This document shows, piece after piece, positions 1-60,802 of a stretch of 64,000 nt of DNA. Made by a program: the position numbers and the translations under genes. Origin of the DNA: an uncultured bacterium. GTDB taxonomy: Bacteria > Patescibacteriota > Minisyncoccia > UBA6257 > 2-01-FULL-56-20. Below the pieces are notes generated by a model. That model was not told where the DNA came from and ran no database searches. It saw only the letters and a list, made by a program, of their open reading frames with translations. Positions within the stretch are counted from its first letter, which is position 1, and the number at the start of each line of letters is the position of its first letter. The stretch spans positions 198,306-262,305 of the forward strand of contig CAWDZM010000001.1 in the NCBI GenBank assembly GCA_963807165.1. The letters are read 5' to 3'.

Positions 1-483
1 GAAAAGATAAACCACGCGATCCATACTGACATCAAACGATATCTGGCACTCATTATTAAAGAGGGTTGGAGCTATAGCGAGAAAGGGGAAAAGAGCCAGG
101 AAGTGGAAGATGTCATCACCGACCTCAATAACAGTATTTATAAAATTTTTGATGAAGCGCCGCAGCTGATGCCGACTTCTTTCGCGCTCCTTTCGATCGT
201 GATGAATAACCGCTCTGCGCGGCTGCAGCACAGCGCCGAGCACATGCCGCCGCTTCTGCGCAACACGCTACGCTTCGCCGCATTCCTACTCATTGCGCTC
301 TCGATGTTCATCGCCATCAGGGATATCTATCTCGCGTTTCTGTTTACCGCAAGCATTGGCAGCCTCTCATACTCCATCTTCTTGGTCTTGAATGATCTCG
401 ATAATCCACTGAAGCCCGGGGATTGGCATATCACGACGAAGGATTATAAGGCGTTGCTCGAAAAGATTGCGCAGAGTTATTGA
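1..483 (+). CDS. Hypothetical membrane protein, 5' partial; the reading frame is open all the way to the window start.
   Basis: Frame 1 has no stop from position 1 up to the ORF-track Met at 103. Hydrophobic C-terminal half. No recognisable family. Confidence 0.35.
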   Translation, partial: EKINHAIHTDIKRYLALIIKEGWSYSEKGEKSQEVEDVITDLNNSIYKIFDEAPQLMPTSFALLSIVMNNRSARLQHSAEHMPPLLRNTLRFAAFLLIALSMFIAIRDIYLAFLFTASIGSLSYSIFLVLNDLDNPLKPGDWHITTKDYKALLEKIAQSY

Positions 484-556
484 TTGACCGGTCAGTATAT
501 TTATAGTACGCTAAAAACGTTTTCAATCAGCACCTTGTAGGTTCAGGGAGGGAATC

Positions 557-901
557 ATGGCAATGAGGATGAATTTTGAGTTGTTAAAAGATGACGAAAA
601 AAAGATCGTCGGAGTCGAACTTGTGGGAGATGGCAGTACGGAAGCCAAGATTTGGGCTGCGACCTTTCCTAGAGCTTTAGCTGCTGGAAGAGCAACTATT
701 GGGTTCAGTGGCAAAAAGATCTTCTTCAATCATTTAAAAGGAGAATTCCCGGCGACGTTTACATTTGAACTATCCGAGGAAGAGATCGATCCCCTGAGAA
801 CAGTTTTCCGATATGATCAACCGTTGAAATCGGAATCTTCAGAGGCGTGGTGCGGGGGATTCAAGCTTTTTCTTCCCAACGAACTGCCCGTGGCTAGCTA
901 A
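557..901 (+). CDS. Hypothetical protein
   Basis: 114-aa ORF followed by a hairpin plus T-run. Confidence 0.35.
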   Translation: MAMRMNFELLKDDEKKIVGVELVGDGSTEAKIWAATFPRALAAGRATIGFSGKKIFFNHLKGEFPATFTFELSEEEIDPLRTVFRYDQPLKSESSEAWCGGFKLFLPNELPVAS

Positions 902-985: not shown

Positions 986-2140
986 TTACTGGTACTGTAT
1001 ATAGCTCGGCTGGGGGCTGAGCTGAAGAACTTGCTGTGGCGTGAGCATGCCGGTACTCGGCGGCAAGAGATCGTTCTTATAAAATAATTTGAATCCAGTA
1101 AACTGCACCGGCTCGGCTTCTTCAACGCGCTGATACGTATTAATTTTTTTTGCCTGCGAACCCCATCCATCCATATCAATTACCACTTGCACCTGTGGCA
1201 GGGGGTTAATGTCCTGATAATTGGTCACCATATCTTCCGTGAACCGATGCACCACCAAAATTTTCGGCGGGAGATTATTTTGATTCACGATATTCGCCAG
1301 AAAGTTTGCGGCAAAGTTGATATCCTTCGCATCCATCGTGCCGATCTCCTGATCCGGCTTTACACCCGGCTCCATATCGAATTCCGGATCAAGCGAGAGT
1401 TCTACGTTTGGTAGCTTTAAATATTGTGCGAGCAACGGCACTTCCGTTTCCACATTACTCCATCCTACTTGGACATCGAGGAATACGAGTCCGTTTACTG
1501 AGTTGGCAAGAGTGATCGCTTTCTCGATCTGGCTTGCGGGCATGCGATCACGCCATTTTCCATCCGCACCCGGACTCCCTTGCGCGGTGACGGCGATGTA
1601 ATCAAGTGCAGGGATCACCGGCGTGGATGGATCCGCCGCGCGCCATTCGGCGGTGGTTGATGCAAGCATCGCCATCATCTGATCCGGTGGATACTGGCCG
1701 AGCACGCCCATCTGGGTGGAATAGAAATTGCCGTAATACGCAACGATGCGATTGAAGGGGAGTAATGCGCCGGCATCGGGCAGTACTGTTTTGACCGGCC
1801 ATGCGCTTGTGGAAGAAACAATCTTCGTCGTCTTTATCCGTGCGATGGTAGAAGTGCCTGGGATCGTGGAGGTAACAATGATCGTTACCGTGTGCGTGGG
1901 AATGTTTGCGATAGCCAATAGCTTTGCGTTATATGCGGCCGCATTGATCGGCGTCAGCGCGGAAAGGGAAGTGCTCGCGCCGGCAACGGCTGACGTGGTG
2001 GAAGAAGAATCGCCTTCTGCGAAAATGTTATACGTTTTGGAGAGAATATCCGCATGAGCCGCCGCATAAAAAATAATGACGAGCGCTCCGGCGCCGACGA
2101 TCACAAAAAATATAGCCCATCGCTTAAAGAAGTTTCTCAT
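986..2140 (-). CDS. Membrane-anchored extracytoplasmic protein; possible glycoside-hydrolase-like TIM-barrel domain. Family assignment is uncertain.
   Basis: N-terminal TM helix, a Ser/Thr-rich linker, then a ~280-aa globular domain. Confidence 0.4.
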   Translation of the reverse strand: MRNFFKRWAIFFVIVGAGALVIIFYAAAHADILSKTYNIFAEGDSSSTTSAVAGASTSLSALTPINAAAYNAKLLAIANIPTHTVTIIVTSTIPGTSTIARIKTTKIVSSTSAWPVKTVLPDAGALLPFNRIVAYYGNFYSTQMGVLGQYPPDQMMAMLASTTAEWRAADPSTPVIPALDYIAVTAQGSPGADGKWRDRMPASQIEKAITLANSVNGLVFLDVQVGWSNVETEVPLLAQYLKLPNVELSLDPEFDMEPGVKPDQEIGTMDAKDINFAANFLANIVNQNNLPPKILVVHRFTEDMVTNYQDINPLPQVQVVIDMDGWGSQAKKINTYQRVEEAEPVQFTGFKLFYKNDLLPPSTGMLTPQQVLQLSPQPSYIQYQ

Positions 2141-2189
2141 CGATATTGATAGGATACCACACTAAAAGTGGTGGTAGGAAAAAATGTCG

Positions 2190-2809: not shown

Positions 2810-3499
2810 TTGAAATTGAAGTGGGCGATTTTTGCAATTGCTATTGCATTGCTTTGCCTTGCATCCCCAGCTGTGGCACGCGCTGATACCTTCACGCTAG
2901 GAACGGGGTATCAGTATGTAACCCTCAACAACCAATTTGTGGTCGGGCTCATCACCGGCAGTACGCTCAACGGCAAGGCCATCGGGCCCGTCATCTGTGA
3001 CACCTCCGATAAGGAGAGTTTCCTTGGGTCTACGTGGATGGTTAACGTGAACCCGCTGACTGGGCCATGGAGTCCTCCACCGATGTTTTCCGGCGTTGGC
3101 GCCACCGGCTATGAAGTGGCAGCAATCGCGGAATACGATATGACTCTGCCGGCCAATCAAAACCAGAACGAGCAAAATCTACTGCAAGATCTGGTGTGGG
3201 ATGAGATGATTCCGGGAAGCGGGGCGGCCATAACGGGCCTTCCTGTTGGCGCTGACAACACACTCCTTGCCCAAATAGCAACGGAGGTTGGAAACTACAA
3301 CTATTCCGGATCAATAATTCTCACCCCGGCCGGTAATGATCCAGATCAGGAATTTCTTGAAATCAATGCAGTCCCTGATCCGGTTCCCGAGCCAGCATCA
3401 CGAACCTTGACGTTAGTCGGACTCCTGTTCGGATTGTCAGCGCTGGGATACAAACAATGTTTCCGGCGCGCGCTTCAAACGCACCGACCGATAGACTAA
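2810..3499 (+). CDS. Secreted PEP-CTERM domain protein
   Basis: Signal peptide. C-terminus is VPEPAS + hydrophobic helix + RR (canonical PEP-CTERM sorting signal). TTG start preceded by AGAGGAGG. Confidence 0.7.
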   Translation: MKLKWAIFAIAIALLCLASPAVARADTFTLGTGYQYVTLNNQFVVGLITGSTLNGKAIGPVICDTSDKESFLGSTWMVNVNPLTGPWSPPPMFSGVGATGYEVAAIAEYDMTLPANQNQNEQNLLQDLVWDEMIPGSGAAITGLPVGADNTLLAQIATEVGNYNYSGSIILTPAGNDPDQEFLEINAVPDPVPEPASRTLTLVGLLFGLSALGYKQCFRRALQTHRPID

Positions 3500-4246: not shown

Positions 4247-4969
4247 TTATAGGTTGGCTGAAAGGAGCTTTCGACGTGCGAGGCCAGCGGCAAAGACAAG
4301 CCCCGTTCCGAGCAGCATCAGAGACGAAGGTTCGGGCGTCGGTGCGACGGGGGTTAGGTCGATGGTAAGGCTTGGATCGATGGCATCTCCGCTTGTGGGC
4401 AATGCCGACAATGTGATGGTATAGGTGTCGGCGGCATTGGGGTTAAAGCTGAGCGGTGTCGCTAGAAACGCGAAGCCGAGATTCTCAGCATTCTGAAATC
4501 CATCGTCGCCCGGCTGCATCGCGCAACCCGAGCAGACAATTCCAGAACCGTTGGCCTGACCGTTGTCCGGCAACAGCGTTGGATTGAAGGAGACTACCGC
4601 GTTTGTTGTGTCGTTTGCAATGATCAGGTTGTAGGTGTACGCGCCCAAAGGGTCGCTCCCGGTATTCACGGAGAATGCGAAATCCCAATTGGCGAGCGTG
4701 CCAGCGTTTGGCGAATAGTAGTAGTCGTTCGTCGTTGGCGTGATCGGCCCCACAAAGCGGGTAATCGCTTCGAGCCCGAGTTGCAGAGTGCTTCCATCCG
4801 AATTTGTCGCAGTGAGTACATCCCAGCCGGCGTTGACGTTTCCGGTTCCAAAGTAGACCCCGGGGTTAGACAGACTGGAGTTGAAGGTCTCATCCGCGTG
4901 TGCAGTTGCCAATGTGGCTCCTCCCATCGCGGCCAAGGCCAAGAACAACATAAACTTTTTACTTTTCAA
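4247..4969 (-). CDS. Secreted PEP-CTERM domain protein
   Basis: Signal peptide. C-terminus is TPEPSS + hydrophobic helix + RRK. Confidence 0.7.
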   Translation of the reverse strand: MKSKKFMLFLALAAMGGATLATAHADETFNSSLSNPGVYFGTGNVNAGWDVLTATNSDGSTLQLGLEAITRFVGPITPTTNDYYYSPNAGTLANWDFAFSVNTGSDPLGAYTYNLIIANDTTNAVVSFNPTLLPDNGQANGSGIVCSGCAMQPGDDGFQNAENLGFAFLATPLSFNPNAADTYTITLSALPTSGDAIDPSLTIDLTPVAPTPEPSSLMLLGTGLVFAAGLARRKLLSANL

Positions 4970-5049
4970 GATTACTCCTCCTGATCGATTTATCCCTATA
5001 ACATAAGGGACGAAGAATATTGTATCCTAAATATGCAAAAAATACAAAT

Positions 5050-5120
5050 GCTGCGGGACTTGGATTCGAACCAAGATTAACGGATTCAGAGTCCGCGTGC
5101 CTACCATTAGCAGATCCCGC
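5050..5120 (-). tRNA. tRNA-Gln (anticodon CTG)
   Basis: Cloverleaf folded by hand: 7-bp acceptor stem, T-loop TTCGAAT, anticodon loop CTCTGAA. CCA is not encoded. Confidence 0.8.
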
Positions 5121-5123
5121 AAT

Positions 5124-5780
5124 TCAATATTCGCGAAAGGCAATGAGTTTTCTCAATTTCTCGACTTCCGCTTTTCTTCTTATCCGTATTGCATTATTAC
5201 GTACTTCGGGATGAAATTCAAGCCGCCGCAAAATGTCTTCGACGATATTCAATAATGATTGATTCTTATTTGAAAACGAGAAATTATAGGTGCAAGTTGG
5301 TAGGTGAATATTGAGGGAACCCTCTGCCTCGAATAATCCGCGAAGAAATCTTATGGAAAATGATTCGTTCTCGTTTATCCAATCCGGAAGAGTATACGGC
5401 ACATCTTTTCTATTACCGCTCGCTATCCCCAGCCGCTGGGAAATATATTTTTGGTATAAGCTGATCCGAAGCGCATTTACATCTTTTAGTTTGGTAACCG
5501 TAGGTTCGTTGCCAAATAAAATATGAGTTAATCTTGTGTACCGGCGGATAAATTCTGGGTTATTGCTATTGCCCACGATTATTAACCGCTCCGTTCGCGG
5601 GCATGCTTCAATATTTCCATCTCCAAGCACCACCCCGATATATTCAGCAAGATCACCGTTACGGGGAAGATCCGCATAGCGAACGCGGTGGTCGTCGCGC
5701 CATTTTTTAAAATTATCAATTTTTCTCGCCTTCATAGTGCGAGATATTTTTTCTGCGCGAGAAAATTTGTGATTTGGCAT
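5124..5780 (-). CDS. LAGLIDADG homing endonuclease, double-motif. Its stop codon lies 3 nt before the 5' end of tRNA-Gln.
   Basis: Motifs YIGVVLGDGNI and FLRGLFEAEGSL. Confidence 0.8.
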   Translation of the reverse strand: MPNHKFSRAEKISRTMKARKIDNFKKWRDDHRVRYADLPRNGDLAEYIGVVLGDGNIEACPRTERLIIVGNSNNPEFIRRYTRLTHILFGNEPTVTKLKDVNALRISLYQKYISQRLGIASGNRKDVPYTLPDWINENESFSIRFLRGLFEAEGSLNIHLPTCTYNFSFSNKNQSLLNIVEDILRRLEFHPEVRNNAIRIRRKAEVEKLRKLIAFREY

Positions 5781-5874
5781 ATAATCTTGTTCGGATTATA
5801 TACCTCCCGCATTAAATTTTTATTAAATCTCTATCTCTATTATTAAACTAGCACAGCCAAGCGAGCGCCTGCGT

Positions 5875-6978
5875 TTACATTAGCTGCTCCACTAGCGCCA
5901 CTTCGAGTGGGACGATGGCGAACGGGGAGTAGCGCATCTCCGCGTACGCGCGGATGAGCGCTTTAATGAACTTAACGAGCGTGGCAGTGTCTGCGGCCGT
6001 GCCGAGCGCTATTGCGCCCGCGACCTCGTCACGCGTGAGGTCGCGCTCCATCACCGACTTGAGCGACGGATTGACCTTAAGCGACAGCACTTTACGCAAG
6101 TAATGGATAAGGTCTTTAGTGAACTGAACAAGATTGTGGCCGTCCTCGTTCAGCTCATTCAGGTTGGCGAGCGCCGCTTTGACATCTTTTTTAACAATGA
6201 GTTCCGCAAGCTCGTGCACTTTCTTCAGCCCGGTGCGGCCGGTCACACGCTCCGCATCGGCAAGTGTGATATTTTTTTCGAGCGATGATATCTGGTCAAG
6301 CAACGATTCCGCGTCGCGGAAGCTGCCTTCCGCGGCGGCCGCGATGAGCTCGATCGCCGGCGCATCTATTGTTATCTTTTCCTTTGCCGCGATCGACGTC
6401 AGCTTTTCAATGATCGTCGCCTTGGTTAATTTTTTAAAAACGAACCGCTGTGCGCGAGAGGTAATTGTCGGCGGAAGTTTTTCAAACTCCGTCGTCGCCA
6501 AAATGATCACCGCATGCTTGGGAGGTTCCTCCAATGTTTTGAGCAGGGCATTGAACGCCGCGCCGGTGAGCATGTGCGCTTCGTCTATAATATAAACCTT
6601 GTGCTCGGCGCTCGCGGGCGCGGTGCGGATGTTTTCCTTGAGGTTGCGAATCTCGTCGATGCCGCGATTAGAGGCTGCGTCGATTTCTACGACATCGAAC
6701 GAATTCTGCGCATCGATCGCCAAGCACTCACGGCACCCGTTGCACGGCTCGCCGAGCGCGGCGAACTTTGGATCCGTGCGGCGCTTTTCGCAATTGAGCA
6801 GCTTTGCGATCAACCGCGCCGTCGTCGTCTTGCCAGTTCCCCGCGCGCCATAAAAAATGTAAGCCTGCCCGAGCCGGTTTGATTTTGCCGCATTCTTAAG
6901 AATCTCAACGTTCGTTTCTTGGCCGAGGACGTCGTCGAGTTTCTGTGGGCGATATTTGCGATAGAGGGCTTGTGCCAT
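5875..6978 (-). CDS. dnaX: DNA polymerase III subunit gamma/tau (short form)
   Basis: Walker A GARGTGKTT and clamp-loader motifs. TATAAT sits 8 nt upstream of the ATG on the minus strand. Confidence 0.85.
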   Translation of the reverse strand: MAQALYRKYRPQKLDDVLGQETNVEILKNAAKSNRLGQAYIFYGARGTGKTTTARLIAKLLNCEKRRTDPKFAALGEPCNGCRECLAIDAQNSFDVVEIDAASNRGIDEIRNLKENIRTAPASAEHKVYIIDEAHMLTGAAFNALLKTLEEPPKHAVIILATTEFEKLPPTITSRAQRFVFKKLTKATIIEKLTSIAAKEKITIDAPAIELIAAAAEGSFRDAESLLDQISSLEKNITLADAERVTGRTGLKKVHELAELIVKKDVKAALANLNELNEDGHNLVQFTKDLIHYLRKVLSLKVNPSLKSVMERDLTRDEVAGAIALGTAADTATLVKFIKALIRAYAEMRYSPFAIVPLEVALVEQLM

Positions 6979-7050
6979 GTGAGATTATTATAGCCGCAGT
7001 TGCATAATTATCAAATAAATGTCATAATCGTTATAGGAGGAAAGTTGCGG

Positions 7051-7176
7051 ATGTCGACGCTTCGAAATTACAGCCCGAGAGTAAGAATCATTCTATTTCT
7101 CTTGATCATAGTAGGGGTTCCAGGCGTATGTCTTTTGCTCATTGCTCACCCCAACTGTTTTCGCTGGCTTCACTAG
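7051..7176 (+). CDS. Possible 41-aa small hydrophobic protein. Not in the ORF track.
   Basis: ATG preceded by GGAGG at 8 nt spacing. Single TM-like segment. Followed by a hairpin plus T-run. Confidence 0.25.
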   Translation: MSTLRNYSPRVRIILFLLIIVGVPGVCLLLIAHPNCFRWLH

Positions 7177-7243
7177 CCCCGGAAGAAAAGCCTCGCGCTT
7201 GCTATCCCCGGGGCTTTTCTTTATTTATCATTAAATTTTTCGT

Positions 7244-8032
7244 ATGATGGAGATAATAGTCATCTCCATGGAATATGAAACGCGCGTAGGAGAGTTTAGC
7301 GGGCCGCTCGAGAAGCTTCTGGAGCTGATTGAGGCGGAAAAGATGGACATCAACGAGGTCAGCCTAGCCAAGGTCACGGATGATTTTTTGCGCTATCTGG
7401 AGACCTTTAAGGGCGGCCTGGAGATAAGTGCCGAGGGCATGACAGATGCGGAGAACAAATTTCGTATTGATCTTCGCGTCCTCGCGGATTTTGTTTCCGT
7501 CGCAAGCAAGCTGATCTTTCTCAAATCGAAATATTTATTGCCGGGCTTGGCACTTTCAGAAGAAGAAGAGGCGGACATTAAAGATCTCGAATCGCGTTTG
7601 CACATCTACCAACAACTCAAGCCTGCGATCAAGCTGATCAACCAACTCTGGGCTACGAGTCATCACTCATTCAGCCGTCCGTATCTGATCGGAAAGATGA
7701 CGATGCCCGGCCAGACGACTTTTTATCCTGGAAAAAGTTTGAGCACGGAAGCGCTCGCCGCGGCGCTTAGCAACATTTTCGAATCCATAAAGACGTACGA
7801 CATGGAGACGGAGACGATAAAAGAGAAGATCGTCACGCTGGAGGAAAAGATCAGTGAGGTGTTGGGGCGCATCCAAAAAGAAGGGGACATGCACTTCAAC
7901 GCGCTGTCCGGCGAGAAGTCGCGCGGCGAGATGATCGTGGTCTTCCTCGCAATCCTTCACCTCGCGCGCGAACAGCTCGTACTTTTGGAGCAAATGGAGA
8001 ATTTTTCTGATATAATGGTGAAGAAAAAATAA
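7244..8032 (+). CDS. scpA: Segregation and condensation protein A
   Basis: ScpA N-terminal motif (PLEKLLELIEAEKMDINEVSLAKVTDDFL). Gene order is scpA then scpB. Confidence 0.8.
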   Translation: MMEIIVISMEYETRVGEFSGPLEKLLELIEAEKMDINEVSLAKVTDDFLRYLETFKGGLEISAEGMTDAENKFRIDLRVLADFVSVASKLIFLKSKYLLPGLALSEEEEADIKDLESRLHIYQQLKPAIKLINQLWATSHHSFSRPYLIGKMTMPGQTTFYPGKSLSTEALAAALSNIFESIKTYDMETETIKEKIVTLEEKISEVLGRIQKEGDMHFNALSGEKSRGEMIVVFLAILHLAREQLVLLEQMENFSDIMVKKK

Positions 8033-8042
8033 TTAACTTTTC

Positions 8043-8636
8043 ATGAAAAACGGACGGGCGTCACTTGAGGCATTGCTATTTATCCATGGGGAACCACTTT
8101 CGTATAAAAAGATACAGGCTGTTTTAGGGATAGAAAAAGAAGAGCTGGAAACGATTATAAAAGAACTTGAAAGCGATCTCACAAACGATGGCCGTGGGTT
8201 GCAACTCGTTTCAGATCGCGAGAAGATCCAGCTTGCCACCAAGCCGGAGTTCAACGACATCCTCGAAAGTTTTATGAAGGAGGAGATTTCCGAGGATCTT
8301 TCACCCGCATCGCTCGAGGCGCTCTCTATTATTGCGTATCTTGGACCAATTTCCCGCGCGCGGTTGGAATATTTGCGTGGCGTGAACTCGATCGTCATCC
8401 TGCGCAGCCTGATGATCCGCGGACTCGTCGAGCGGTTTCCCGATCCGGAGCGCCCCGCGAGCTTTTTATACCGCGGCACATTCGACCTCATGAAGCACTT
8501 GGGTATAAAAGAAAAGGAGGCGTTGCCGGATTACGAAAAATTTCAGGAATTATTAAAAGTATTCGACGCACCAAGCACGGAACCCGCGGGTAGTCCAAGC
8601 GCGGGCAATCCGCCAGCGCCAACCGCGACACAATAA
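8043..8636 (+). CDS. scpB: Segregation and condensation protein B
   Basis: ScpB winged-helix motifs (LEALLFIHGEPLSYKKI). Confidence 0.8.
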   Translation: MKNGRASLEALLFIHGEPLSYKKIQAVLGIEKEELETIIKELESDLTNDGRGLQLVSDREKIQLATKPEFNDILESFMKEEISEDLSPASLEALSIIAYLGPISRARLEYLRGVNSIVILRSLMIRGLVERFPDPERPASFLYRGTFDLMKHLGIKEKEALPDYEKFQELLKVFDAPSTEPAGSPSAGNPPAPTATQ

Positions 8637-8646
8637 TCAGCGCATT

Positions 8647-9666
8647 ATGAAACACTCCGAGAAATTCATTTTTTTATTGGTGGTGATTGGCGCGATTTTT
8701 TTTGCCCGCCTTATCTATCCGAATATTTCCGGCGTGCCATCATTCGCGAGCACCGACCCACCACAGTCCGCTGACGCGCAGATAATCACCGCGCCACCAA
8801 CGCTCGTATTGCCACAAACCTCTGTAAGCGATGCGGGCGGCGTCGGATCCGGCGGTGCGAATGCGGGCGTGGATAAAAATGAAAATGCCAGCGGAACAAT
8901 GGCGGTCACAAATTCTGTTTTCTCTCGCATCAATGACACGCCGCTTCCGAGCTTCGATAATACAGCCTACATGATAGCGGATCTTTCGACCGGCGCTGTG
9001 CTCTCCGGCGCAAATACCACGACGCGCTGGCCAACCGCATCGCTTACCAAGCTCCTCACGGCGACACTGGTATTTGATCAACTGAGCACAAGTACCAAGA
9101 TCACTATCACTCCGGAGATGTTCGCGGCGGATCCGACGGAAGAAACGCTCGTCGTCGGCGGTACGTACACCGTTGAAGATCTTCTCCATGTGATGCTGAT
9201 GCCATCCAGCAATGTTGCCGCACAGGCATTCGCGGATTATATCGGTCAAACACAATTTATGAACGAGATGAATGCTCGTGCACAACAGTGGGGGATGACC
9301 GATAGCTACTTCGCCGATCCATCCGGCATTTCCGCCGCAAATGAATCAACCGCAAATAATCTTTTGATCCTCGCCCAACATGTCTATAATAATTATCCAG
9401 GCATTCTCGCGATCACGGATACGCACCAAACGACGATCACGGAATTGAACAGTGGCGAGAAGGTGGCCGTAACGAGTATCAATGATTTTGCGGGTGAACC
9501 GGGATTTGTTGGCGGAAAAACAGGCCACACCACCCAAGCAGGAGGCAATCTTTTATCGATTTTTAATGATGATGGACATCCGGTGTTGATCATCGTGCTC
9601 AACACGATCGATCGCTTTGGAGACACATCAAAGCTTTACACCTGGTTCCGGGCGAACTATAAATAA
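8647..9666 (+). CDS. dacA: D-alanyl-D-alanine carboxypeptidase (S11 penicillin-binding protein)
   Basis: SxxK (ASLTK), SxN (SSN) and KTG (KTGHT) motifs. N-terminal TM. Confidence 0.8.
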   Translation: MKHSEKFIFLLVVIGAIFFARLIYPNISGVPSFASTDPPQSADAQIITAPPTLVLPQTSVSDAGGVGSGGANAGVDKNENASGTMAVTNSVFSRINDTPLPSFDNTAYMIADLSTGAVLSGANTTTRWPTASLTKLLTATLVFDQLSTSTKITITPEMFAADPTEETLVVGGTYTVEDLLHVMLMPSSNVAAQAFADYIGQTQFMNEMNARAQQWGMTDSYFADPSGISAANESTANNLLILAQHVYNNYPGILAITDTHQTTITELNSGEKVAVTSINDFAGEPGFVGGKTGHTTQAGGNLLSIFNDDGHPVLIIVLNTIDRFGDTSKLYTWFRANYK

Positions 9667-9677
9667 ATTATAACGAT

Positions 9678-10740
9678 ATGGTACTTATGCATTCCCTATT
9701 GCTCAGCGAAGCGGTGCGCGTCACTATTTTGACGACGATATCATTCGTGGTCGCGCTCCTCGTTACACCGCTGTGGTATAAGTTCATCATCAAATATAAA
9801 TTCGGGAAGCAGTTGCGTAATGGCGCGGAAACGCCGGTATTTGCGGAGCTCCATAAGAATAAAGCCGGCACGCCGACGAGCGGCGGCATTATCATCTGGA
9901 CAACCGTGATCGGTATGGCGATCATCTTCGATGTCATGCGTCACATTTTTGGCGGCGGATGGAATTATTTTAACTTCGTTGATCGCGCGGAAACCTATCT
10001 GCCGATCGCGGCATTCCTTATCGCTGCATTGCTTGGACTGCTCGACGACTGGCTTAATGTACTTAAAATTGGCGGCGCGCCAGGCGGGGGATTAAAAATT
10101 CGCCAGAAGGCGATTGGTACGTCTAATCATCGCGCTCATCGGCGCATGGTGGTTCTACTTCCGCCTTGGATGGAACGTACTCACCATCCCGTTCGTTGGT
10201 AATATTACGATCGGCTGGTGGTATATCCCTATATTTATTTTTATCATTTTTGCCGCAGCATTTTCTGCAAACGAAACCGATGGCTTGGACGGTCTCCTTG
10301 GTGGTGTATCGCTCTTTGCGTTCGTGTCGCTCGCCACGGTCGCATTTGTTCTGCACGACTATAACCTTGCCGCATTTTGCGGAGCCGTCATCGGAGCACT
10401 TCTCGCATTCCTGTGGTTTAACATCTATCCGGCAAAATTTTTTATGGGAGACACCGGCTCGATGTCGCTCGGCATTACGATCGGCGTCATCGCAATGCTC
10501 ACCAATACCACGCTCATCCTTCCATTCTTTACCATCATTCTCGTCGTCGAATCACTTTCCGTCATCATCCAGGTAATCTCCAAAAAATTGCGGCGAGGAA
10601 AGAAAGTATTCCGCTCCGCGCCGATCCATCACCACTTTGAAGCACTCGGCTGGCCCGAGTCGCAAGTTACCATGCGTTTTTGGATCGTCTCCGCGGTATT
10701 CTGCGCACTCGGACTCGTTATATTCTTCCTTTCTCACTAA
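9678..10740 (+). pseudogene. mraY: Phospho-N-acetylmuramoyl-pentapeptide transferase MraY, with a +1 frame break near 10120. Probably a 1-nt insertion artefact.
   Basis: Two ORFs (9678..10202 and 10114..10740) together cover MraY. Removing one nucleotide restores the frame. Confidence 0.8.
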
Positions 10741-10820
10741 GAATTAATTATTAAAATAAGATAAAAAAATGGAAGGCACGATGTGTGTCTTCCATTTGCT
10801 CCATGGCCGAGGCCGAGATG

Positions 10821-11417
10821 CTACAGGTTGTGTTGTATGAGGCGCGGTTGGATGCTGAAGCGCCGAAGGCCGAAGGCGAAAGCCAGCAGGCCGGAACCGA
10901 GTAAAAGTAATGATGATGGTTCCGGAACTGGCGGCGTTGCTATTTCTGTCAGTGTAAATGTCCCAGGCGTCTGGACGAAGGTGCTCTCGAGAATGGTATC
11001 GCCAGCAAAGATGTTTATCTGAACGCCGTCGGTGGCGAGAAAGAGAACTCCAGCCGAATCGAGTTCTTCTCCCCCAGATCCAGGAAAAGAGAACTTGTTA
11101 TCAAAGAAACAATTTCCTCCGGCTGGGCACAATACTGCCCCGGGGAAATATCCATCTGCCGGGCCCGCGTTGTTGCTGGTCGGATTGAGCGAACCGGTTG
11201 TCCCCGTCGTTAGAAAAAGTGGATCGCCATCAACTACAAGCACCGTGCCGTCGGTGGCCTGATATTGGCCATCGCCAAGAGGTACAGCGGTAAGAGTGCC
11301 TGTCAGAATGGGCGTTTCGTCTGGTGCCGTAAAGGTGAATGTGAAGCTGTCAGCGACAGCCGCACGAGATGCGATCCCGAGAACTGCGATCGCGAGAAGT
11401 GCAGGAATTTTTTTCAT
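10821..11417 (-). CDS. Secreted PEP-CTERM domain protein
   Basis: Signal peptide. C-terminus is VPEPSS + hydrophobic helix + RR. Confidence 0.7.
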   Translation of the reverse strand: MKKIPALLAIAVLGIASRAAVADSFTFTFTAPDETPILTGTLTAVPLGDGQYQATDGTVLVVDGDPLFLTTGTTGSLNPTSNNAGPADGYFPGAVLCPAGGNCFFDNKFSFPGSGGEELDSAGVLFLATDGVQINIFAGDTILESTFVQTPGTFTLTEIATPPVPEPSSLLLLGSGLLAFAFGLRRFSIQPRLIQHNL

Positions 11418-11500
11418 CTAAAACAATCCCCCTCATCAGAGTTGACAAAAGTTCTGTCTGGTGTCGAGTATATATTAAAATTCCATAAAGTCAATCTTAT

Positions 11501-11529
11501 TTGACTATCCCTAACCATTTGTTATACTT
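11501..11529 (+). promoter_or_regulatory. Sigma-70-type promoter of rpsB: TTGACT, 17-nt spacer, TATACT. The ATG is 6 nt downstream, so the mRNA is leaderless.
   Basis: Hexamers read directly from the sequence. No SD upstream of the ATG at 11536. Confidence 0.45.
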
Positions 11530-11535
11530 TCTCGT

Positions 11536-12339
11536 ATGCCAGAAGACACAATAGTATCTATGCAAAACAACCAGACGTCCGGATATCCGGCGGAAGGATC
11601 CCGCGAAATGATGGATGCGGGAGTTTTTTATGGCCGCAAAAAAAGCAAGACGAATCCCAAAATGCGTCCGTTCGTGCTCGCTAATCGTGGCGGAATCGAG
11701 ATCATCAACCTCCAGAAGACGGAGGAGTTGATGGATACCGCAGCAGCGTTCATCAAAGAGAAGTCCCGGAATAACGGTTTGGTATTGCTCGTCGGCACAG
11801 AGCCGGCGGCGGAAATGAGCGTCACGGCACTCGCAAAGAAGCTCGGCATTCCGTACGTCACAACCCGCTGGGTCGGTGGTGCTATTACGAACTTCAAGAT
11901 CATCAATAAGCGCATCGAGCATCTTAAAACACTTCGCACCGATCTCGCGTCCGGCGCGCTCGTCAGCAAGTATACCAAGAAGGAGCGTCTTGATATGGAA
12001 AAAGAAATGAAGCGTTTGGAAGTACTCATGGGCGGTCTTGAAAATATGACAAAGGAGCCAGATGTCGTCGTTATCATCGATCCGATTTTGCATCACACCG
12101 CGCTCAGCGAAGCGAATACAAAAAAGATCCCCGTGGTCGCGCTGGCAAACGTGGACGCAGATCCGGACAAGATCGCATATCTCGTTCCAGGCAACGATAA
12201 GGCGAAGAAGAGCATTGAGTGGTTCATTGAGCGCGTGGGTAAAGCCTATGAAGAGGGGGTAAAGTTGCGTGCAGTGGCGCCGACACCTTCCACGCCGATG
12301 GCGGCAGTGGTTGCCTCAGCACCGGTAGAGGAAAAGTAG
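11536..12339 (+). CDS. rpsB: 30S ribosomal protein S2
   Basis: Full-length S2 homology. Classic rpsB-tsf pair. Confidence 0.9.
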   Translation: MPEDTIVSMQNNQTSGYPAEGSREMMDAGVFYGRKKSKTNPKMRPFVLANRGGIEIINLQKTEELMDTAAAFIKEKSRNNGLVLLVGTEPAAEMSVTALAKKLGIPYVTTRWVGGAITNFKIINKRIEHLKTLRTDLASGALVSKYTKKERLDMEKEMKRLEVLMGGLENMTKEPDVVVIIDPILHHTALSEANTKKIPVVALANVDADPDKIAYLVPGNDKAKKSIEWFIERVGKAYEEGVKLRAVAPTPSTPMAAVVASAPVEEK

Positions 12340-12378
12340 TGGTGCGCTTGGAAAAGTAATGTAGTATAATTTGAAACT

Positions 12379-12840
12379 ATGGAAATCAAAACAACGGTGA
12401 CGGCAGAGATGGTTCAAAAATTGCGCGATGTGACGAGCGCGGGAGTGATGGATTGCCGCAAGGCGCTCATCGAAGCAAACGGCGACGTTGATGCTGCGGT
12501 CAAGATCATTCACGAGAAGGGATTGGCAAAGGTAGAGAAGCGCGCGGATCGCGAGACTGGCGCGGGACTTGTGCAGTCGTATGTTCACAACGAGCGCATC
12601 GGCGTGTTGCTGCGTTTGAGCGCAGAGACCGACTTTGTTGTTCGCTCGGAACCTTTCAAGGCGCTGGCCCACGATCTCGCGATGCATATCGCGGCGGCGG
12701 CACCAAAAAATGTTGAGGAATTGCTTGCACAGCCGTATGTAAAGGATGAATCTCGCACGGTAAAGGATGTGGTAGGCGAGGTCATTGCAAAGGTGGGGGA
12801 GAACGTCGCCGTCGGCGAGTTCTATCGCGTCGAAGCATAA
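12379..12840 (+). CDS. tsf: Elongation factor Ts (short form)
   Basis: EF-Ts UBA-like N-terminus (VTAEMVQKLRDVTSAGVMDCRKAL). TATAAT sits 8 nt upstream of the ATG. Confidence 0.85.
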   Translation: MEIKTTVTAEMVQKLRDVTSAGVMDCRKALIEANGDVDAAVKIIHEKGLAKVEKRADRETGAGLVQSYVHNERIGVLLRLSAETDFVVRSEPFKALAHDLAMHIAAAAPKNVEELLAQPYVKDESRTVKDVVGEVIAKVGENVAVGEFYRVEA

Positions 12841-12864
12841 CGCCCGCACGCACCGCGCATTCAC

Positions 12865-13200
12865 ATGGAATTAATCTTTACTATAATCCTGATGATCTGC
12901 CTGGGCACCGTACTGTACCTGACAGTGCAAGCATTACCTCGCATTGAAGAAGTGCCGGTGGATGAGAAAGGATTCCTCGAGCGCTGGGCGCATTCCGAAA
13001 TGCCGGAAAAGATCGACGCCGCATTCAATAATTTCTTGCTCAAGTTTTTGCGCCGCATAAAAGTGCTCATCTTAAAGTTCGACAACGCGCTTGCGAAGCA
13101 TCTTCAAAAGATCAAACCAGAAGAAGACAAGCGTCCAACCATTGATTTTAAAGAGATTAGCGGGCAGGGGAACAAGGAGGAATCGGACGAAAAAATTTAA
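12865..13200 (+). CDS. Hypothetical small membrane protein
   Basis: N-terminal TM helix, Lys/Glu-rich tail. Confidence 0.35.
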   Translation: MELIFTIILMICLGTVLYLTVQALPRIEEVPVDEKGFLERWAHSEMPEKIDAAFNNFLLKFLRRIKVLILKFDNALAKHLQKIKPEEDKRPTIDFKEISGQGNKEESDEKI

Positions 13201-13235
13201 TGAAGTTTTAATGCGGTTTTTGTTATGGTTATTCC

Positions 13236-14021
13236 ATGGCAAAACGTTGGACTCACAGCGAGGAGCTATCTTACGGTGATCAATTGCGGAAGTTATATCT
13301 ATTGGAAAATAGAACCATTTCTGATATCGGTTTGATATTAAATATATCGCCGAGTGCGGTATACCATCGGCTGATAAGACTAAAAATTCCGGTTGTGCGA
13401 GAGAAAAAAGCTCATTATTTAAATCGTCGATCGGATATTATTATCCCAACGCACCATTCCAACACTCTCGCAGAAATTTTTGGCATCATGTTGGGCGATG
13501 GGAAATTATCTCATTACCAGACTATGGTCACGCTGGGGAATAAGGAGGAAGTATACGCCAAGTATGTCGCCGAACTGCTCATTAAAATTTTTGGGGTTCA
13601 TCCAAAAATAATTACCGACCCTCATAAAGGTTATCGAACGGTTTATTTAGGATCAACGGAAATAGCAGCGTGGTTGGTAAGCGAAGGATTGGTATATAAT
13701 AAAGTTGCGTCACAAGTTGATGTTCCTCTGTGGATACTGGATAAAGAGCAATATATGAAACGATTCGTTCGTGGATTTTTTGATACCGACGAATCGATCT
13801 ATAAATTGAAATATGGCGCACAATTATCTTTTACCAATTATTCCGTCCCGTTGCTTATATCTTTACAATGGCTACTAAGACGGTTAGGATATAGAGTGTC
13901 CGAAATAAGCGGACATCGATTTTATCTTACCAAACAAGGCGAGATAGAAAGATTTTTTAAAGAGATCGGCCCGTGCAACCCAAAACACGTCAAGCGATTT
14001 AATCTCTTTATTAATTCTTAA
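13236..14021 (+). CDS. LAGLIDADG homing endonuclease, double-motif, with an N-terminal HTH. Its stop codon lies 11 nt before tRNA-Tyr.
   Basis: Motifs IFGIMLGDGKL and FVRGFFDTDESI. Paralogous to 5124..5780. Confidence 0.8.
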   Translation: MAKRWTHSEELSYGDQLRKLYLLENRTISDIGLILNISPSAVYHRLIRLKIPVVREKKAHYLNRRSDIIIPTHHSNTLAEIFGIMLGDGKLSHYQTMVTLGNKEEVYAKYVAELLIKIFGVHPKIITDPHKGYRTVYLGSTEIAAWLVSEGLVYNKVASQVDVPLWILDKEQYMKRFVRGFFDTDESIYKLKYGAQLSFTNYSVPLLISLQWLLRRLGYRVSEISGHRFYLTKQGEIERFFKEIGPCNPKHVKRFNLFINS

Positions 14022-14032
14022 TATAAGCTCAT

Positions 14033-14116
14033 GCGTCGGTGGCAGAGCGGTCAAATGCTCGAGACTGTAAATCTCGCGCCCTATGGGCTACGCAGGTTCG
14101 AATCCTGCCCGGCGCA
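14033..14116 (+). tRNA. tRNA-Tyr (anticodon GTA), long variable arm
   Basis: Cloverleaf folded by hand. Anticodon loop CTGTAAA, T-loop TTCGAAT. CCA is not encoded. Confidence 0.85.
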
Positions 14117-14135
14117 CACATAGAAAAGAAAAAAC

Positions 14136-56858: not shown

Positions 56859-56909
56859 TGGAAATGATTATAACAGATTGTTTTGGAAGAACAAGGGCTG
56901 CCTCTGTTG

Positions 56910-56990
56910 TGCGCGGGAGAGGATTCGAACCTCCACGCCTTTCGGCACACGCACCTCAAGCGTGCTCGGCTACCATTACGACACCCGCGC
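56910..56990 (-). tRNA. tRNA-Leu (anticodon GAG), long variable arm
   Basis: Cloverleaf folded by hand. Anticodon loop TTGAGGT. CCA is not encoded. Confidence 0.8.
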
Positions 56991-56991
56991 G

Positions 56992-57675
56992 TTATATTGT
57001 CAGCTTCTTATTTATTACCGCCAACGCATCTTCGATCTTTTTGCGCTTTCGGGATAAACAAACCACCTCGGGATTATAATACATCTTTGGTAATAATTTC
57101 AATGACTCAGCCTTCGCATATTTTATTTCATACATGGGAGCCTTCCCCGTCTTTGTAATATGACCCTTTATCGCTAATCTCCGAAGTATTCCCTCCCGTA
57201 TCCATACGATATGTTTTTCGCTGGCAGACATAAAAACCGTGTAAAACATATAGCTTGATCGCCAGCGGGGGTCCCAATATGAGTAGAACGTTCCGTCACC
57301 GTCGAAATGGCCACGAAGGAAATCGAAGAAATATTCGGGTGGAATATCTATACTCCCGATTATTTTCGATTTTTGCGGCATAATGCCGATGCTATTAAGA
57401 AAATTGCAAAATGCGACATCGCCAACCTGAAGATTAAAGTATTTTTTCTCTCTATTCGATCCGCTGCTTTTCATTCCAATTTTGTTCGTAATACCCAAGC
57501 ACCCCATAAAATTTTTCATCTGCTCTTCATCTTTTGAAGTAAAATTTATCATTTTGCGATTGGAGTATATGCATCCATCCGTCACTAAAAGCCCGATTGC
57601 GTAGGCAAATTCGGGCGACCATCGTATTGCGATCTTATGTTGCGGATGCATACCCGACCCTACCACACCGCACAT
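56992..57675 (-). CDS. LAGLIDADG homing endonuclease, double-motif. Its stop codon lies 1 nt before the 5' end of tRNA-Leu.
   Basis: Motifs AIGLLVTDGCI and FLRGHFDGDGTF. Confidence 0.75.
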   Translation of the reverse strand: MCGVVGSGMHPQHKIAIRWSPEFAYAIGLLVTDGCIYSNRKMINFTSKDEEQMKNFMGCLGITNKIGMKSSGSNREKKYFNLQVGDVAFCNFLNSIGIMPQKSKIIGSIDIPPEYFFDFLRGHFDGDGTFYSYWDPRWRSSYMFYTVFMSASEKHIVWIREGILRRLAIKGHITKTGKAPMYEIKYAKAESLKLLPKMYYNPEVVCLSRKRKKIEDALAVINKKLTI

Positions 57676-57753
57676 TAAAAATTTCTTAAAAGATCTTTGA
57701 TAATAAAAAAACCTCGCGAATATGCGCGCGAGGCATGCCCAAACATCGCCATA

Positions 57754-58940: not shown

Positions 58941-59079
58941 AGTAGTATTCTATCATATTTCTGTAAAGAGCTTTTTAGTTGTCCCAATTACCTCCCTCGC
59001 TTTCGCCTGCGATCGATTCGCTGGCCAAAGAGAAGAAAGTTCGACATATATAGAACCGAAGTTTTATATATTTAGTTTA

Positions 59080-60626
<1,547 letters not shown>

Positions 60627-60802
60627 GATAAAAAGATATCGCCCAAAGTCTCAAAAACTTTGAACGTTGATCCTAATGTTATTGTTGCAACATTTGATTA
60701 CTTCTTAACGTTGCCAAAAAGAATAAATTGGGACAACTAAAAAACTCTCTCTTTTTTCCTTACCATTAAATTGTGAAGGGACAGCTCGATACAACGAGGT
60801 CT

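Follow-up and report, generated by a model that had tools for sequence, protein, structure and literature searches.

LAGLIDADG endonuclease genes that abut tRNA genes in Patescibacteria: probable free-standing homing cassettes that restore the 5' part of their target

Why should every tRNA gene in a long stretch of a bacterial chromosome directly follow a gene for a homing endonuclease? The question is raised by 64,000 nucleotides (nt) of contig CAWDZM010000001.1 (assembly GCA_963807165.1, positions 198,306 to 262,305) from an uncultured member of the Patescibacteriota, a stretch that is referred to here, at its full length, as the window. ARAGORN finds exactly three tRNAs in the whole 64-kb window, and a check of the open reading frames (ORFs) bears out what a preliminary description of this DNA had stated, namely that each of the three lies directly downstream of a LAGLIDADG ORF on the same strand. 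The three homing endonuclease (HE) genes, termed HE1, HE2 and HE3, occupy 5124..5780 on the minus strand (218 amino acids, aa), 13236..14021 on the plus strand (261 aa) and 56992..57675 on the minus strand (227 aa). The complete resident tRNA genes that follow them are tRNA-Gln(CTG) at 5050..5121 (minus strand; ARAGORN, and Rfam RF00005 with 55.8 bits), tRNA-Tyr(GTA) at 14033..14117 (plus strand; ARAGORN and Rfam) and tRNA-Leu(GAG) at 56909..56990 (minus strand; ARAGORN), so that the distance from stop codon to tRNA position +1 is 2, 11 and 1 nt, respectively. A phmmer search with the three HEs against the 632 six-frame ORFs of at least 50 aa in the window returned no further LAGLIDADG ORF. 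The answer favoured here, at a probability of roughly two in three, is that these are free-standing LAGLIDADG homing-endonuclease cassettes, that each family of them sits on one Patescibacteria tRNA gene and restores the 5' part of that gene, and that cassette and tRNA are probably transcribed together.

The assignment of the ORFs rests on profile matches, all three being significant against the Pfam family LAGLIDADG_3 (PF14528; cut-off 22.5 bits), with 35.9 bits for HE1, 42.1 for HE2 and 35.1 for HE3. The proteins had been described as double-motif enzymes that resemble each other, and this stands: in phmmer comparisons HE1 and HE2 share 25% identity (E=2e-11) and HE2 and HE3 24% (E=2e-6), HE1 and HE3 match with E=0.013, and the three are distant paralogues at about 25% identity. 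Both LAGLIDADG motifs in each protein end in a conserved acidic catalytic residue. The invariant columns of the family alignments are G53-D54-G55 (LGDG) and E151-A152-E153 (EAEG) in HE1, with the acidic residues D54 and E153; G87-D88-G89 (LGDG) and D183-T184-D185 (DTD) in HE2, with D88 and D185; and T25-D26-G27 (TDG) and D118-G119-D120-G121 (DGDG) in HE3, with D26 and D120. HE2 carries in addition an N-terminal extension resembling a helix-turn-helix (HTH), of which residues 20-47 give weak HTH matches in Pfam. An AlphaFold2 model, made for HE1, has a mean confidence (pLDDT) of 88.8 and shows the duplicated H-E-E-H-E-E-H order of a pseudo-dimeric alpha-beta-beta-alpha-beta-beta-alpha fold; compared with the PDB by Foldseek, it finds I-DmoI as the top match (probability 1.0, template modelling (TM) score 0.56-0.70), along with I-Tsp061I, PI-PfuI and I-SceI, and a profile search of PDB sequences also matched I-DmoI, weakly (E=0.0025). 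The families are large, with 728 proteins for HE1, 233 for HE2 and 2703 for HE3 at E<=1e-5 and with identities to the query of typically 50-85% (the database has HE1 itself in a 203-aa version instead of the 218 aa of the window), and they are almost confined to Patescibacteria (labels Paceibacterota, Parcubacteria and Minisyncoccia). Close pairs of HE1 genes have a ratio of nonsynonymous to synonymous change (dN/dS) of 0.05-0.15 by the Nei-Gojobori method, and the HE proteins are predicted to be intact LAGLIDADG enzymes that are under selection and catalytically equipped.

Several members of the HE1 and HE2 families (P0020, P0122, P0129, P0131, P0133, P0136 and others) bear the JGI name 'DNA-binding transcriptional regulator WhiA'. 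WhiA has lost the catalytic acidic residues of the LAGLIDADG enzymes. Since these residues are kept in the present families, and since the match of HE1 to the WhiA domain PF14527 falls below the cut-off (19.5 versus 23.2 bits), the label is probably wrong.

The next question is whether the adjacency of HE and tRNA is peculiar to the window. When one genome per GTDB species was scanned with the HE1-family alignment, 80 loci were recovered, at 44-84% amino-acid identity, and in 77 of them tRNA-Gln(CTG) follows HE1 directly and on the same strand; the remaining three contigs end 22-62 nt past the ORF. In these 77 species tRNA +1 is most often 3-4 nt past the HE1 stop codon, the extremes being -15 and +18 nt, so that the tight junction first seen in the window is a conserved one; a single locus outside this range (L056) has no HE1 stop codon left and reads on into the tRNA for 82 nt. 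Homologues of HE2 abut tRNA-Tyr(GTA) in 6/6 distinct loci and those of HE3 abut tRNA-Leu(GAG) in 6/6, both small samples. That the adjacency is not chance, as the preliminary description had supposed, follows from its recurrence in many further species at the orthologous loci. It does not, by contrast, extend to tRNAs in general: the HE1 loci contain 19 other tRNAs (13 Thr-CGT, three Gly-CCC and one each of Thr-GGT, Ser-GGA, Pro-TGG and Ile-GAT), and none of the 19 has a LAGLIDADG ORF upstream. Each HE family is bound to a single tRNA species, and the three out of three of the window represent three occupied sites of three tRNA-specific families. The surroundings are less constant than the junction, in that the upstream flank of HE1 varies (often prfB-ftsE-ftsX-(pyrG), dnaX in the window) and the downstream flank is not conserved, while the HE-tRNA junction is never broken.

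Two features of the junction deserve mention on their own account. HE ORFs that lack a stop codon of their own and read into the tRNA occur in both families, for HE1 in L010, L011, L018, L034, L041, L056, L066 and L080 and for HE2 in L082, L337 and L339, the HE2 versions ending at a TAA from the anticodon loop of tRNA-Tyr; database proteins such as P0050, P0161, P0178 and others accordingly carry tails of translated tRNA (...RRSDSGYSR and the like). Also, about 13 of the 80 contigs end inside tRNA-Gln or at most some 130 nt after it (L004, L009, L024, L027, L030, L033, L040, L041, L042, L046, L052, L067 and L070), which suggests that assemblies break at tRNA-Gln through strain variation or repeats at the tRNA.

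If the cassettes target the tRNA gene itself, a trace of the target might be expected on their far side, and such a trace is present. The motif TCTAATGGTAG, which corresponds to the D stem and loop of tRNA-Gln, is found with at most two mismatches, and in most cases exactly, at a fixed place 30-60 nt upstream of the HE start in 46/81 HE1 loci, against a background of 0.02 per 200 nt elsewhere in the loci, and it is present in three of four independent metagenomic HE1 loci as well. In many loci (for example L011, L032, L037, L071, L072 and L078) this stub amounts to the whole first 22 nt of tRNA-Gln (TGCGGGATCGTCTAATGGTAGG), and where the upstream gene is ftsX the stub begins 1-11 nt past the ftsX stop codon, exactly where the tRNA starts in the HE-less loci L235 and L257. 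The order of an HE1 locus is upstream gene, tRNA positions 1 to about 22 (...TCTAATGGTAGG), an A-rich spacer, TGnTATAAT, about 6 nt, the HE ORF from ATG to stop, 0-10 nt, and the complete tRNA. Read in this way, the cassette lies inside the tRNA gene, which remains complete because its own 5' part is present twice. In the window the corresponding control region of HE1 (5795..5816, minus strand) was read from the sequence as a degenerate candidate D-loop remnant, TTTAATGCGGGAGG at 5816..5803, together with a -10 box TATAAT at 5800..5795, and orthologous HE1 loci have a clear TCTAATGGTAGG remnant and TGnTATAAT at the matching place. A proposal that the 'TGCGGGA' upstream of HE1 in the window is a remnant of tRNA positions 1-7 was abandoned, as 7-nt matches are also common in control regions (13 versus 28 loci).

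The HE2 and HE3 families share the promoter-ATG layout of HE1. The upstream control region of HE2 in the window, likewise read from the sequence (13206..13229, plus strand), consists of the motif TTTTAATGCGG at 13206..13216 and an extended -10 box TGtTATGGT at 13221..13229, whose distance of 6 nt to the ATG implies a leaderless mRNA; this layout, TGnTA..-6 nt-ATG, recurs in L081, L082, L335, L337 and L339, and a tRNA-Tyr-like fragment, GGTTGAGCTGTCAATTGC, stands at the equivalent upstream place in L337 and L082. Upstream of HE3 (57657..57734, minus strand) the terminator hairpin of the preceding gene (57734..57711) is followed by TTTTTAATG... and by an extended -10 box TGgTAGGGT at 57665..57657, 5 nt before an ATG at 57651. 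This second ATG is probably the real start of HE3, since homologues align from there (residue ~8) and since the -10 box lies 5 nt upstream of it. The upstream layout of HE3 is conserved in L329, L331, L084 and L086, and its TTTAATG...TGGTAGGGT could be a rearranged D loop. All three cassettes of the window share a TTTAATG(N)GCGG-like motif that ends about 10 nt before the -10 box (5816..5806, minus; 13207..13216, plus; 57678..57667, minus), which may derive from a D-loop stub by decay or be an operator that they have in common; its spacing rules out a -35 box. The stub as such was also considered as the -35 box of the HE promoter and rejected, because the distance from stub to -10 box is bimodal (~9-11 and ~17-21 nt).

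The position of the promoters bears on how the tRNA is expressed. Across the HE1 loci, extended -10 boxes peak at -720..-701 from tRNA +1 (35/78 loci), and no comparable promoter peak was seen near the 3' end of the ORF in the same 78 loci. As the extended -10 lies about 6 nt before the ATG, the HE mRNA is expected to be leaderless. There is no room for a promoter between the HE stop codon and tRNA +1, and the only promoter conserved in position lies upstream of the HE; for these reasons it is most likely that the tRNA is transcribed through the HE gene. The preliminary description had offered co-transcription with release by RNase P as an alternative to tRNA targeting; co-transcription is retained here as likely, but it belongs to the targeting mechanism and does not compete with it. 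The idea that a tRNA promoter is embedded as a general feature in the conserved end of the ORF (...LIxFREY*) was dropped, since the nucleotides there vary as freely as the codons allow and there is no strong positional peak.

Are the sites always occupied? Metagenome contigs were scanned with a pattern for the 5' part of tRNA-Gln without reference to the HE. This pattern fits 34 of 78 HE1-linked tRNAs (the 77 loci and the window) and none of 80 phage loci; it returned 120 loci, roughly half of which come from high-GC bacteria other than Patescibacteria. Among some 59 low-GC tRNA-Gln loci with enough upstream sequence, low GC being only a proxy for Patescibacteria, four have an intact HE1 (L260, L274, L311, L314), one is truncated and about 54 are without HE1. 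In the truncated locus (L292) only the C-terminal ~30-60 codons of HE1 remain, abutting the tRNA. Many of the tRNAs at empty sites are 86-100% identical to HE1-linked tRNAs and have the same neighbours: the tRNA begins 3-4 nt past the ftsX stop codon in L235 and L257 and 63 nt past ftsX in L224, and it follows pyrG in L291 and L302, dnaX in L215 and L320 and gltX in L281. A generic tRNA-Gln(CTG) pattern applied to viral contigs was of no use for finding empty alleles, as it was swamped by phage tRNA arrays.

The closest comparison is offered by a metagenome contig (L321, Ga0182030_10034210) that is collinear with positions 5050..14127 of the window at 77-88% nucleotide identity. There the dnaX stop codon is followed by 62 nt, which include a TATAAT box, and then by tRNA-Gln, with no HE1, while the window has at this place the dnaX stop codon, 94 nt, HE1, 2 nt and the tRNA; the dnaX gene that anchors the comparison lies at 5875..6978 (minus strand) of the window. 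Together with the ftsX loci, in which the stub sits at the tRNA start of the empty allele, this provides the comparison with HE-less homologous loci that the preliminary description had suggested. An apparent HE1 match in L321 proved spurious, the homologue behind it having been annotated with a C-terminus that consists of translated tRNA, and an excess divergence between the tRNAs of window and L321, considered as a sign of imported tRNAs, was also discarded, because a tRNA identity of 86% is unexceptional where overall identity is only 77-88%. Among related genomes, then, the same genomic site is found occupied by HE1, empty or degenerate; the cassettes are sporadic, and probably mobile.

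Homing endonucleases competing for conserved targets would be expected to converge on the same sites, and nucleases of other families do occur in the position of the HEs. At the tRNA-Tyr site of L321, where the window has HE2 (window 13200..14030), there is instead an ORF on the reverse strand at ~204..590 of the contig for a 125-aa PD-(D/E)XK endonuclease (PF11645, E=9e-22), which matches PDB 2OST, the tRNA-intron enzyme I-Ssp6803I, with E=6.5e-10; its stop codon lies 3-4 nt before tRNA-Tyr and a tRNA-Tyr-like stub, GCGTCG...TGGT...CA, precedes its ATG. GIY-YIG ORFs of ~70-80 aa abut tRNA-Gln(CTG) in L241 and L248 (Pfam PF01541) and in L310 (phmmer only). In L241 the arrangement extends over -316..-7 from tRNA-Gln with a long 5' stub at -316, and this stub seems to reach the anticodon loop, with a 36-nt GC-rich insertion. 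Another GIY-YIG-like ORF (L015; phmmer only) runs into tRNA-Thr(CGT) at 928. In L082 an HNH endonuclease gene (1387..1902, minus strand) abuts tRNA-Leu(TAA), with a D-loop-like motif GGTATAC before its start. In two phage contigs of IMG/VR with 34 tRNAs (L156, at 2821..3461, and L119), a distant LAGLIDADG ORF (PF14528, PF00961) lies between two tRNAs and reads 13 nt into tRNA-Gln(TTG), whose D arm is GTCTAATTGGTAGGAC, and has no stub; IMG/VR yielded no member of the HE2 and HE3 families apart from one relative with 21% identity.

Further ORFs in such positions, and one possible scar, were noted beside these. A 231-aa ORF that abuts tRNA-Gly(GCC) (L333, ~4860..5555) has an N-terminal HTH-like segment and a sequence, 'GAALYWAEGYK', reminiscent of LAGLIDADG; Pfam assigned no significant family to this ORF or to the tRNA-abutting ORFs of L289 (HNH-like motif) and L329 (tRNA-Pro). 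The region 1293..2150 (minus strand) of L082 contains an orphan, degenerate 5' fragment of tRNA-Cys about 30 nt upstream of tRNA-Cys with no nuclease gene between them, which may be the scar of a lost cassette.

These findings bear directly on the suggestion, also made in the preliminary description, that the arrangement is a domesticated one. A domesticated LAGLIDADG protein might serve as a regulator of the locus or in tRNA maturation, in the manner of WhiA or the maturases, and would be inherited vertically in an operon with its tRNA. The strong purifying selection on HE1 (the dN/dS given above), the partly kept upstream synteny (prfB-ftsE-ftsX-(pyrG)), a conserved stub that could be a binding site, and the JGI label of some members as WhiA all agree with such a role. 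It is hard, though, to reconcile a dedicated host function with several unrelated nuclease families (PD-(D/E)XK, GIY-YIG, HNH) at the same position elsewhere, and most related tRNA-Gln(CTG) alleles, including that of the close syntenic relative L321, are without HE1; the truncated copy in L292 and the invariant catalytic acidic residues, unlike the state of WhiA, also count against it. Domestication is accordingly judged unlikely and was not upheld. What had been proposed instead, a family of free-standing endonucleases that target tRNA genes, gains from the occupied and empty states of one syntenic site, from the truncated copy and from the other nucleases; the simple insertion just upstream of the tRNA that went with it has to be given up, since a 5' stub precedes the HE.

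Two further explanations concern the kind of element that might have brought the cassette to the tRNA. One is that the HE merely travels with a larger element, which is driven by an integrase and attaches at tRNA genes. Serine recombinase genes were observed directly 3' of tRNA-Gln in L014, L019, L026, L073, L074, L254 and L258 and 3' of tRNA-Leu in L088 (2206..3951), and L082 has a duplicated 3' end of tRNA-Leu(TAG), so that integrative elements, too, appear to attach to these tRNAs, at the 3' side. Integrases duplicate the 3' end of the tRNA. The cassettes, in contrast, lie on the 5' side with a 5' duplication, comprise only ~750 nt with promoter and ORF alone and no integrase, and the recombinases belong to separate elements and are absent from most loci, the window among them, so that this explanation is very improbable. 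The other is that a group I intron has decayed: the HE would once have been encoded by an intron in the tRNA gene, and the broken intron would now lie beside a duplicated tRNA. Patescibacteria tRNA genes often contain group I introns, some of them with an HE gene (PMC13011429); moreover, the stub places the cassette inside the tRNA gene, and the stub of L241 may extend to the anticodon loop. Yet Rfam finds no intron match in the window, where the resident tRNAs are uninterrupted, the ~30-60 nt before the ORF and 0-11 nt after it are too short for a ribozyme, the end of the HE1 stub is in the D loop and not at the intron sites reported for Patescibacteria (35/36), and the tRNA-intron HEs reported there are of the HNH type, not LAGLIDADG (PMC13011429). 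Descent from such an intron is very improbable as well.

If the free-standing cassettes home into tRNA genes, where might they cut? The D arm of tRNA-Gln is the candidate target; the canonical tRNA-Gln gene carries ...TGCGGGATCGTCTAATGGTAGGACA..., with ...GGGATCGTCTAATGGTAGGAC... as the candidate site. The sequence TCTAATGGTAGG is present in 31 of 53 HE1-less alleles versus 11 of 83 resident tRNAs of HE1 loci. When only those resident tRNAs that fit the sampling pattern are counted, the figures are 8/39 versus 31/53 for the HE1-less alleles (Fisher p=3e-4, a statistic that ignores phylogeny and is to that extent a mark against the argument). The resident tRNAs of HE1 loci have compensated D-stem variants (CTGC..GCA, CGGC..GCC, GGTG..CAC), and the D arm of the resident tRNA-Gln of the window (CTGC..GCAC) is of this non-canonical type. 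The acceptor stem of the resident tRNA often differs from that of its own stub, as in L037, where the stub has TGCGGGA and the resident tRNA TGGAGGG. These patterns fit a canonical D arm that is the cleavable site and a downstream copy that is resistant or imported.

A sequence of events can then be suggested for the life of such a cassette. The enzyme would cut its cognate tRNA gene, where this is still free of the cassette, within the D-arm region or close to it. An allele with the cassette would then be the template for repair, by which the cassette would be copied in and with it a new tRNA 5' part or an entire tRNA, so that an essential single-copy tRNA would never be lost, and this without any intron. 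The old 5' end of the tRNA would be left behind as the stub. Transcripts would reach the tRNA through the HE gene, starting at the HE promoter and possibly also at the former tRNA promoter that precedes the stub, and RNase P would free the tRNA from them. As for the stub, it may serve as an operator or half-site for the enzyme, or it may be a homology arm that is maintained because selection acts on the element, and as a direct repeat of the new 5' end it would allow the precise loss of the cassette.

This last possibility leads to an alternative in which the cassettes are ancient relics that no longer move: there would have been one insertion per tRNA gene in an early ancestor of the Patescibacteria, followed by vertical descent and repeated precise loss through the 22-nt repeats, the enzyme being kept for another reason. 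The families are old paralogues at ~25% identity, each is strictly tied to one tRNA, the direct repeats would ease exact deletion, and no phage-borne copies of HE2 or HE3 turned up in IMG/VR, all of which would suit a relic. On the other hand, an immobile selfish gene, once fixed, should lose its catalytic core, which is instead under strong selection, and stubs with intact acceptor sequences are found beside fully decayed ones, suggesting insertions of different ages. Different nuclease families at the same site in close relatives argue for ongoing turnover. Finally, HE distances correlate less well with those of FtsE, FtsX, PrfB and PyrG (r=0.07-0.35) than these housekeeping proteins do among themselves (0.19-0.63), a comparison in which the divergences are saturated. 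The relic alternative, too, is improbable.

The preferred reading, that of mobile cassettes restoring their target, is drawn throughout from the comparison of sequences and has to be weighed against a number of observations that tell the other way. HE1 is conserved as well as FtsE or PrfB (54% mean identity), and all 80 of its genome copies are full length, which is unusual for a purely selfish gene and is what domestication would lead one to expect; the saturation just mentioned also takes force from the distance correlations. The sample of HE-less loci was itself chosen with a tRNA pattern. The stub is clear for HE1 only, being suggestive for HE2 (L337, L082) and ambiguous for HE3, and in the window all three stubs are degenerate: the alignment of the HE1 remnant is marginal (p~0.025) and those of HE2 and HE3 are at noise level. 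Conservation of the stub is much higher in its D-loop part than in the first 10 nt, subject to a detection bias; the simple neutral decay of a relic does not explain this. Candidate internal promoters exist in single loci, for example in HE3 at 57073..57102 (minus strand; TTGAAA-18-TATAAT, 11/12 matches, 83 nt upstream of tRNA-Leu), so that a separate tRNA promoter is possible, though the total of promoter-like sites in the region is not above that of shuffled sequence. The HE stop codon lies inside the tRNA in ~9/77 HE1 loci and in several HE2 loci; it would there be lost upon RNase P cleavage, and translation must therefore precede processing. Lastly, the resident tRNAs of L006, L021, L026 and L064 are canonical and over positions 1-41 identical to empty alleles (L227 in the case of L026), which is hard to square with a host that avoids self-cleavage.

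A wider proposal can be put forward tentatively, with the odds somewhat against it, namely that intron-free invasion of essential tRNA genes is general in Patescibacteria and that at least four unrelated nuclease families (LAGLIDADG, GIY-YIG, HNH and PD-(D/E)XK) have converged on splitting the gene in its 5' half and supplying a substitute for the 5' part or for the entire tRNA, on taking over transcription and on keeping a half-site as operator or homology arm. If so, the cassettes would drive the sequence evolution and the foreign replacement of single-copy tRNA genes, and resident tRNAs at occupied sites would drift away from the cleavable D-arm sequence. Already at the level of the three families, free-standing tRNA-gene cassettes would account for thousands of LAGLIDADG_3 proteins of Patescibacteria that are named 'hypothetical', 'WhiA' or 'intein endonuclease', and would represent an alternative to introns and inteins, at the DNA level, for a selfish gene in an essential gene: the displaced end is duplicated and the host gene rides on the transcript of the element. 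This predicts compact natural meganucleases with defined 20-bp targets in tRNA genes, for which matched occupied and empty alleles are at hand, and it points to selfish nucleases as a force acting on the sequences of tRNA genes, on the use of promoters and on local genome structure in ultrasmall bacteria whose tRNAs are single-copy. There are also pitfalls for annotation and assembly, in the form of tRNA stubs, ORFs that read into tRNAs and contig breaks at such tRNAs.

As to their surroundings in the window, the cassettes have chromosomal neighbours (dnaX, tsf, secD, 16S rRNA, recO). The 16S rRNA gene (59074..60631, minus strand) is uninterrupted, matches the full model with 1352 bits and stands, without an adjoining 23S or 5S gene in the window, upstream of the HE3 cassette by ~1.4 kb; its neighbours resemble the response regulator-rplS block of the relatives L086 and L331. 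Directly downstream of tRNA-Gln is a gene (4247..4969, minus strand) for a secreted protein with a PEP-CTERM sorting motif (PF07589), which is unexpected in Patescibacteria.

How do these cassettes compare with known systems? In fold, the monomeric double-motif LAGLIDADG enzymes such as I-DmoI (PDB 2VS7, 5AK9) provide the nearest structural match to the modelled HE1, with two LAGLIDADG helices that each contribute an acidic catalytic residue; I-DmoI differs in being encoded by an archaeal rRNA intron and in having only ~17% identity to HE1, and relative to it HE1 has an extra basic N-terminal segment of ~40 aa and HE2 an N-terminal HTH-like domain of ~70 aa. In target and in the need to keep the host gene functional, the cassettes resemble I-Ssp6803I, a PD-(D/E)XK enzyme of a tRNA-fMet intron, and the group I introns found in tRNA genes of Patescibacteria (PMC13011429), and a relative of I-Ssp6803I (PDDEXK_5) occupies the same abutting position at tRNA-Tyr in L321. 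Such tRNA-intron elements need RNA splicing, however, whereas the cassettes are without a ribozyme and leave the gene intact at the DNA level through the duplicated 5' part. Within the host phylum, insertions and introns in the rRNA genes of the Candidate Phyla Radiation (CPR)/Patescibacteria carry LAGLIDADG genes (PMC11270868, PMC11809585, PMC7143001), and those of 16S insertions include LAGLIDADG_3 (PMC11270868), so that phylum, Pfam family and a highly conserved RNA gene as target are held in common; those genes, however, are located within rRNA genes and are cut out at the RNA level, and PMC11270868 mentions tRNA not once. No account of tRNA-abutting free-standing LAGLIDADG cassettes or of tRNA stubs was found in the literature consulted on Patescibacteria, nor was this architecture found described for cellular LAGLIDADG genes, in keeping with what the preliminary description had said of it.

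The restoration of the target has a parallel in organelles. Free-standing homing endonuclease genes there, for example at atp6 or cox in fungal mitochondria, carry a replacement for the gene end that they displace, and a truncated relic then lies beside the intact gene. By analogy the stub would be the counterpart of that relic; the organellar elements use protein-coding genes and usually their 3' ends, whereas here the targets would be the 5' ends of tRNA genes on a bacterial chromosome, and the tRNA would rely on read-through from the HE. The nearest functional analogue, as far as an analogy can carry, is SegB of phage T4, a free-standing GIY-YIG enzyme within a phage tRNA gene cluster that recognises a 27-bp site including the T-psi-C motif (PMC2330249). 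A free-standing HE among tRNA genes that recognises a tRNA gene and spreads with the neighbouring tRNAs without an intron is what the two would share, cleavage and spread being conjectural for the present enzymes. SegB, in contrast, is a GIY-YIG protein, is borne by a phage, lies between tRNA genes without a stub and uses a motif common to many tRNAs, whereas the cassettes of the window are of the LAGLIDADG type and chromosomal, with one family per tRNA species, an ORF that abuts tRNA +1 and a 5' remnant upstream. The free-standing homing endonuclease as such is thus familiar; what appears to be new is the host context, the class of target and an architecture that would restore it.

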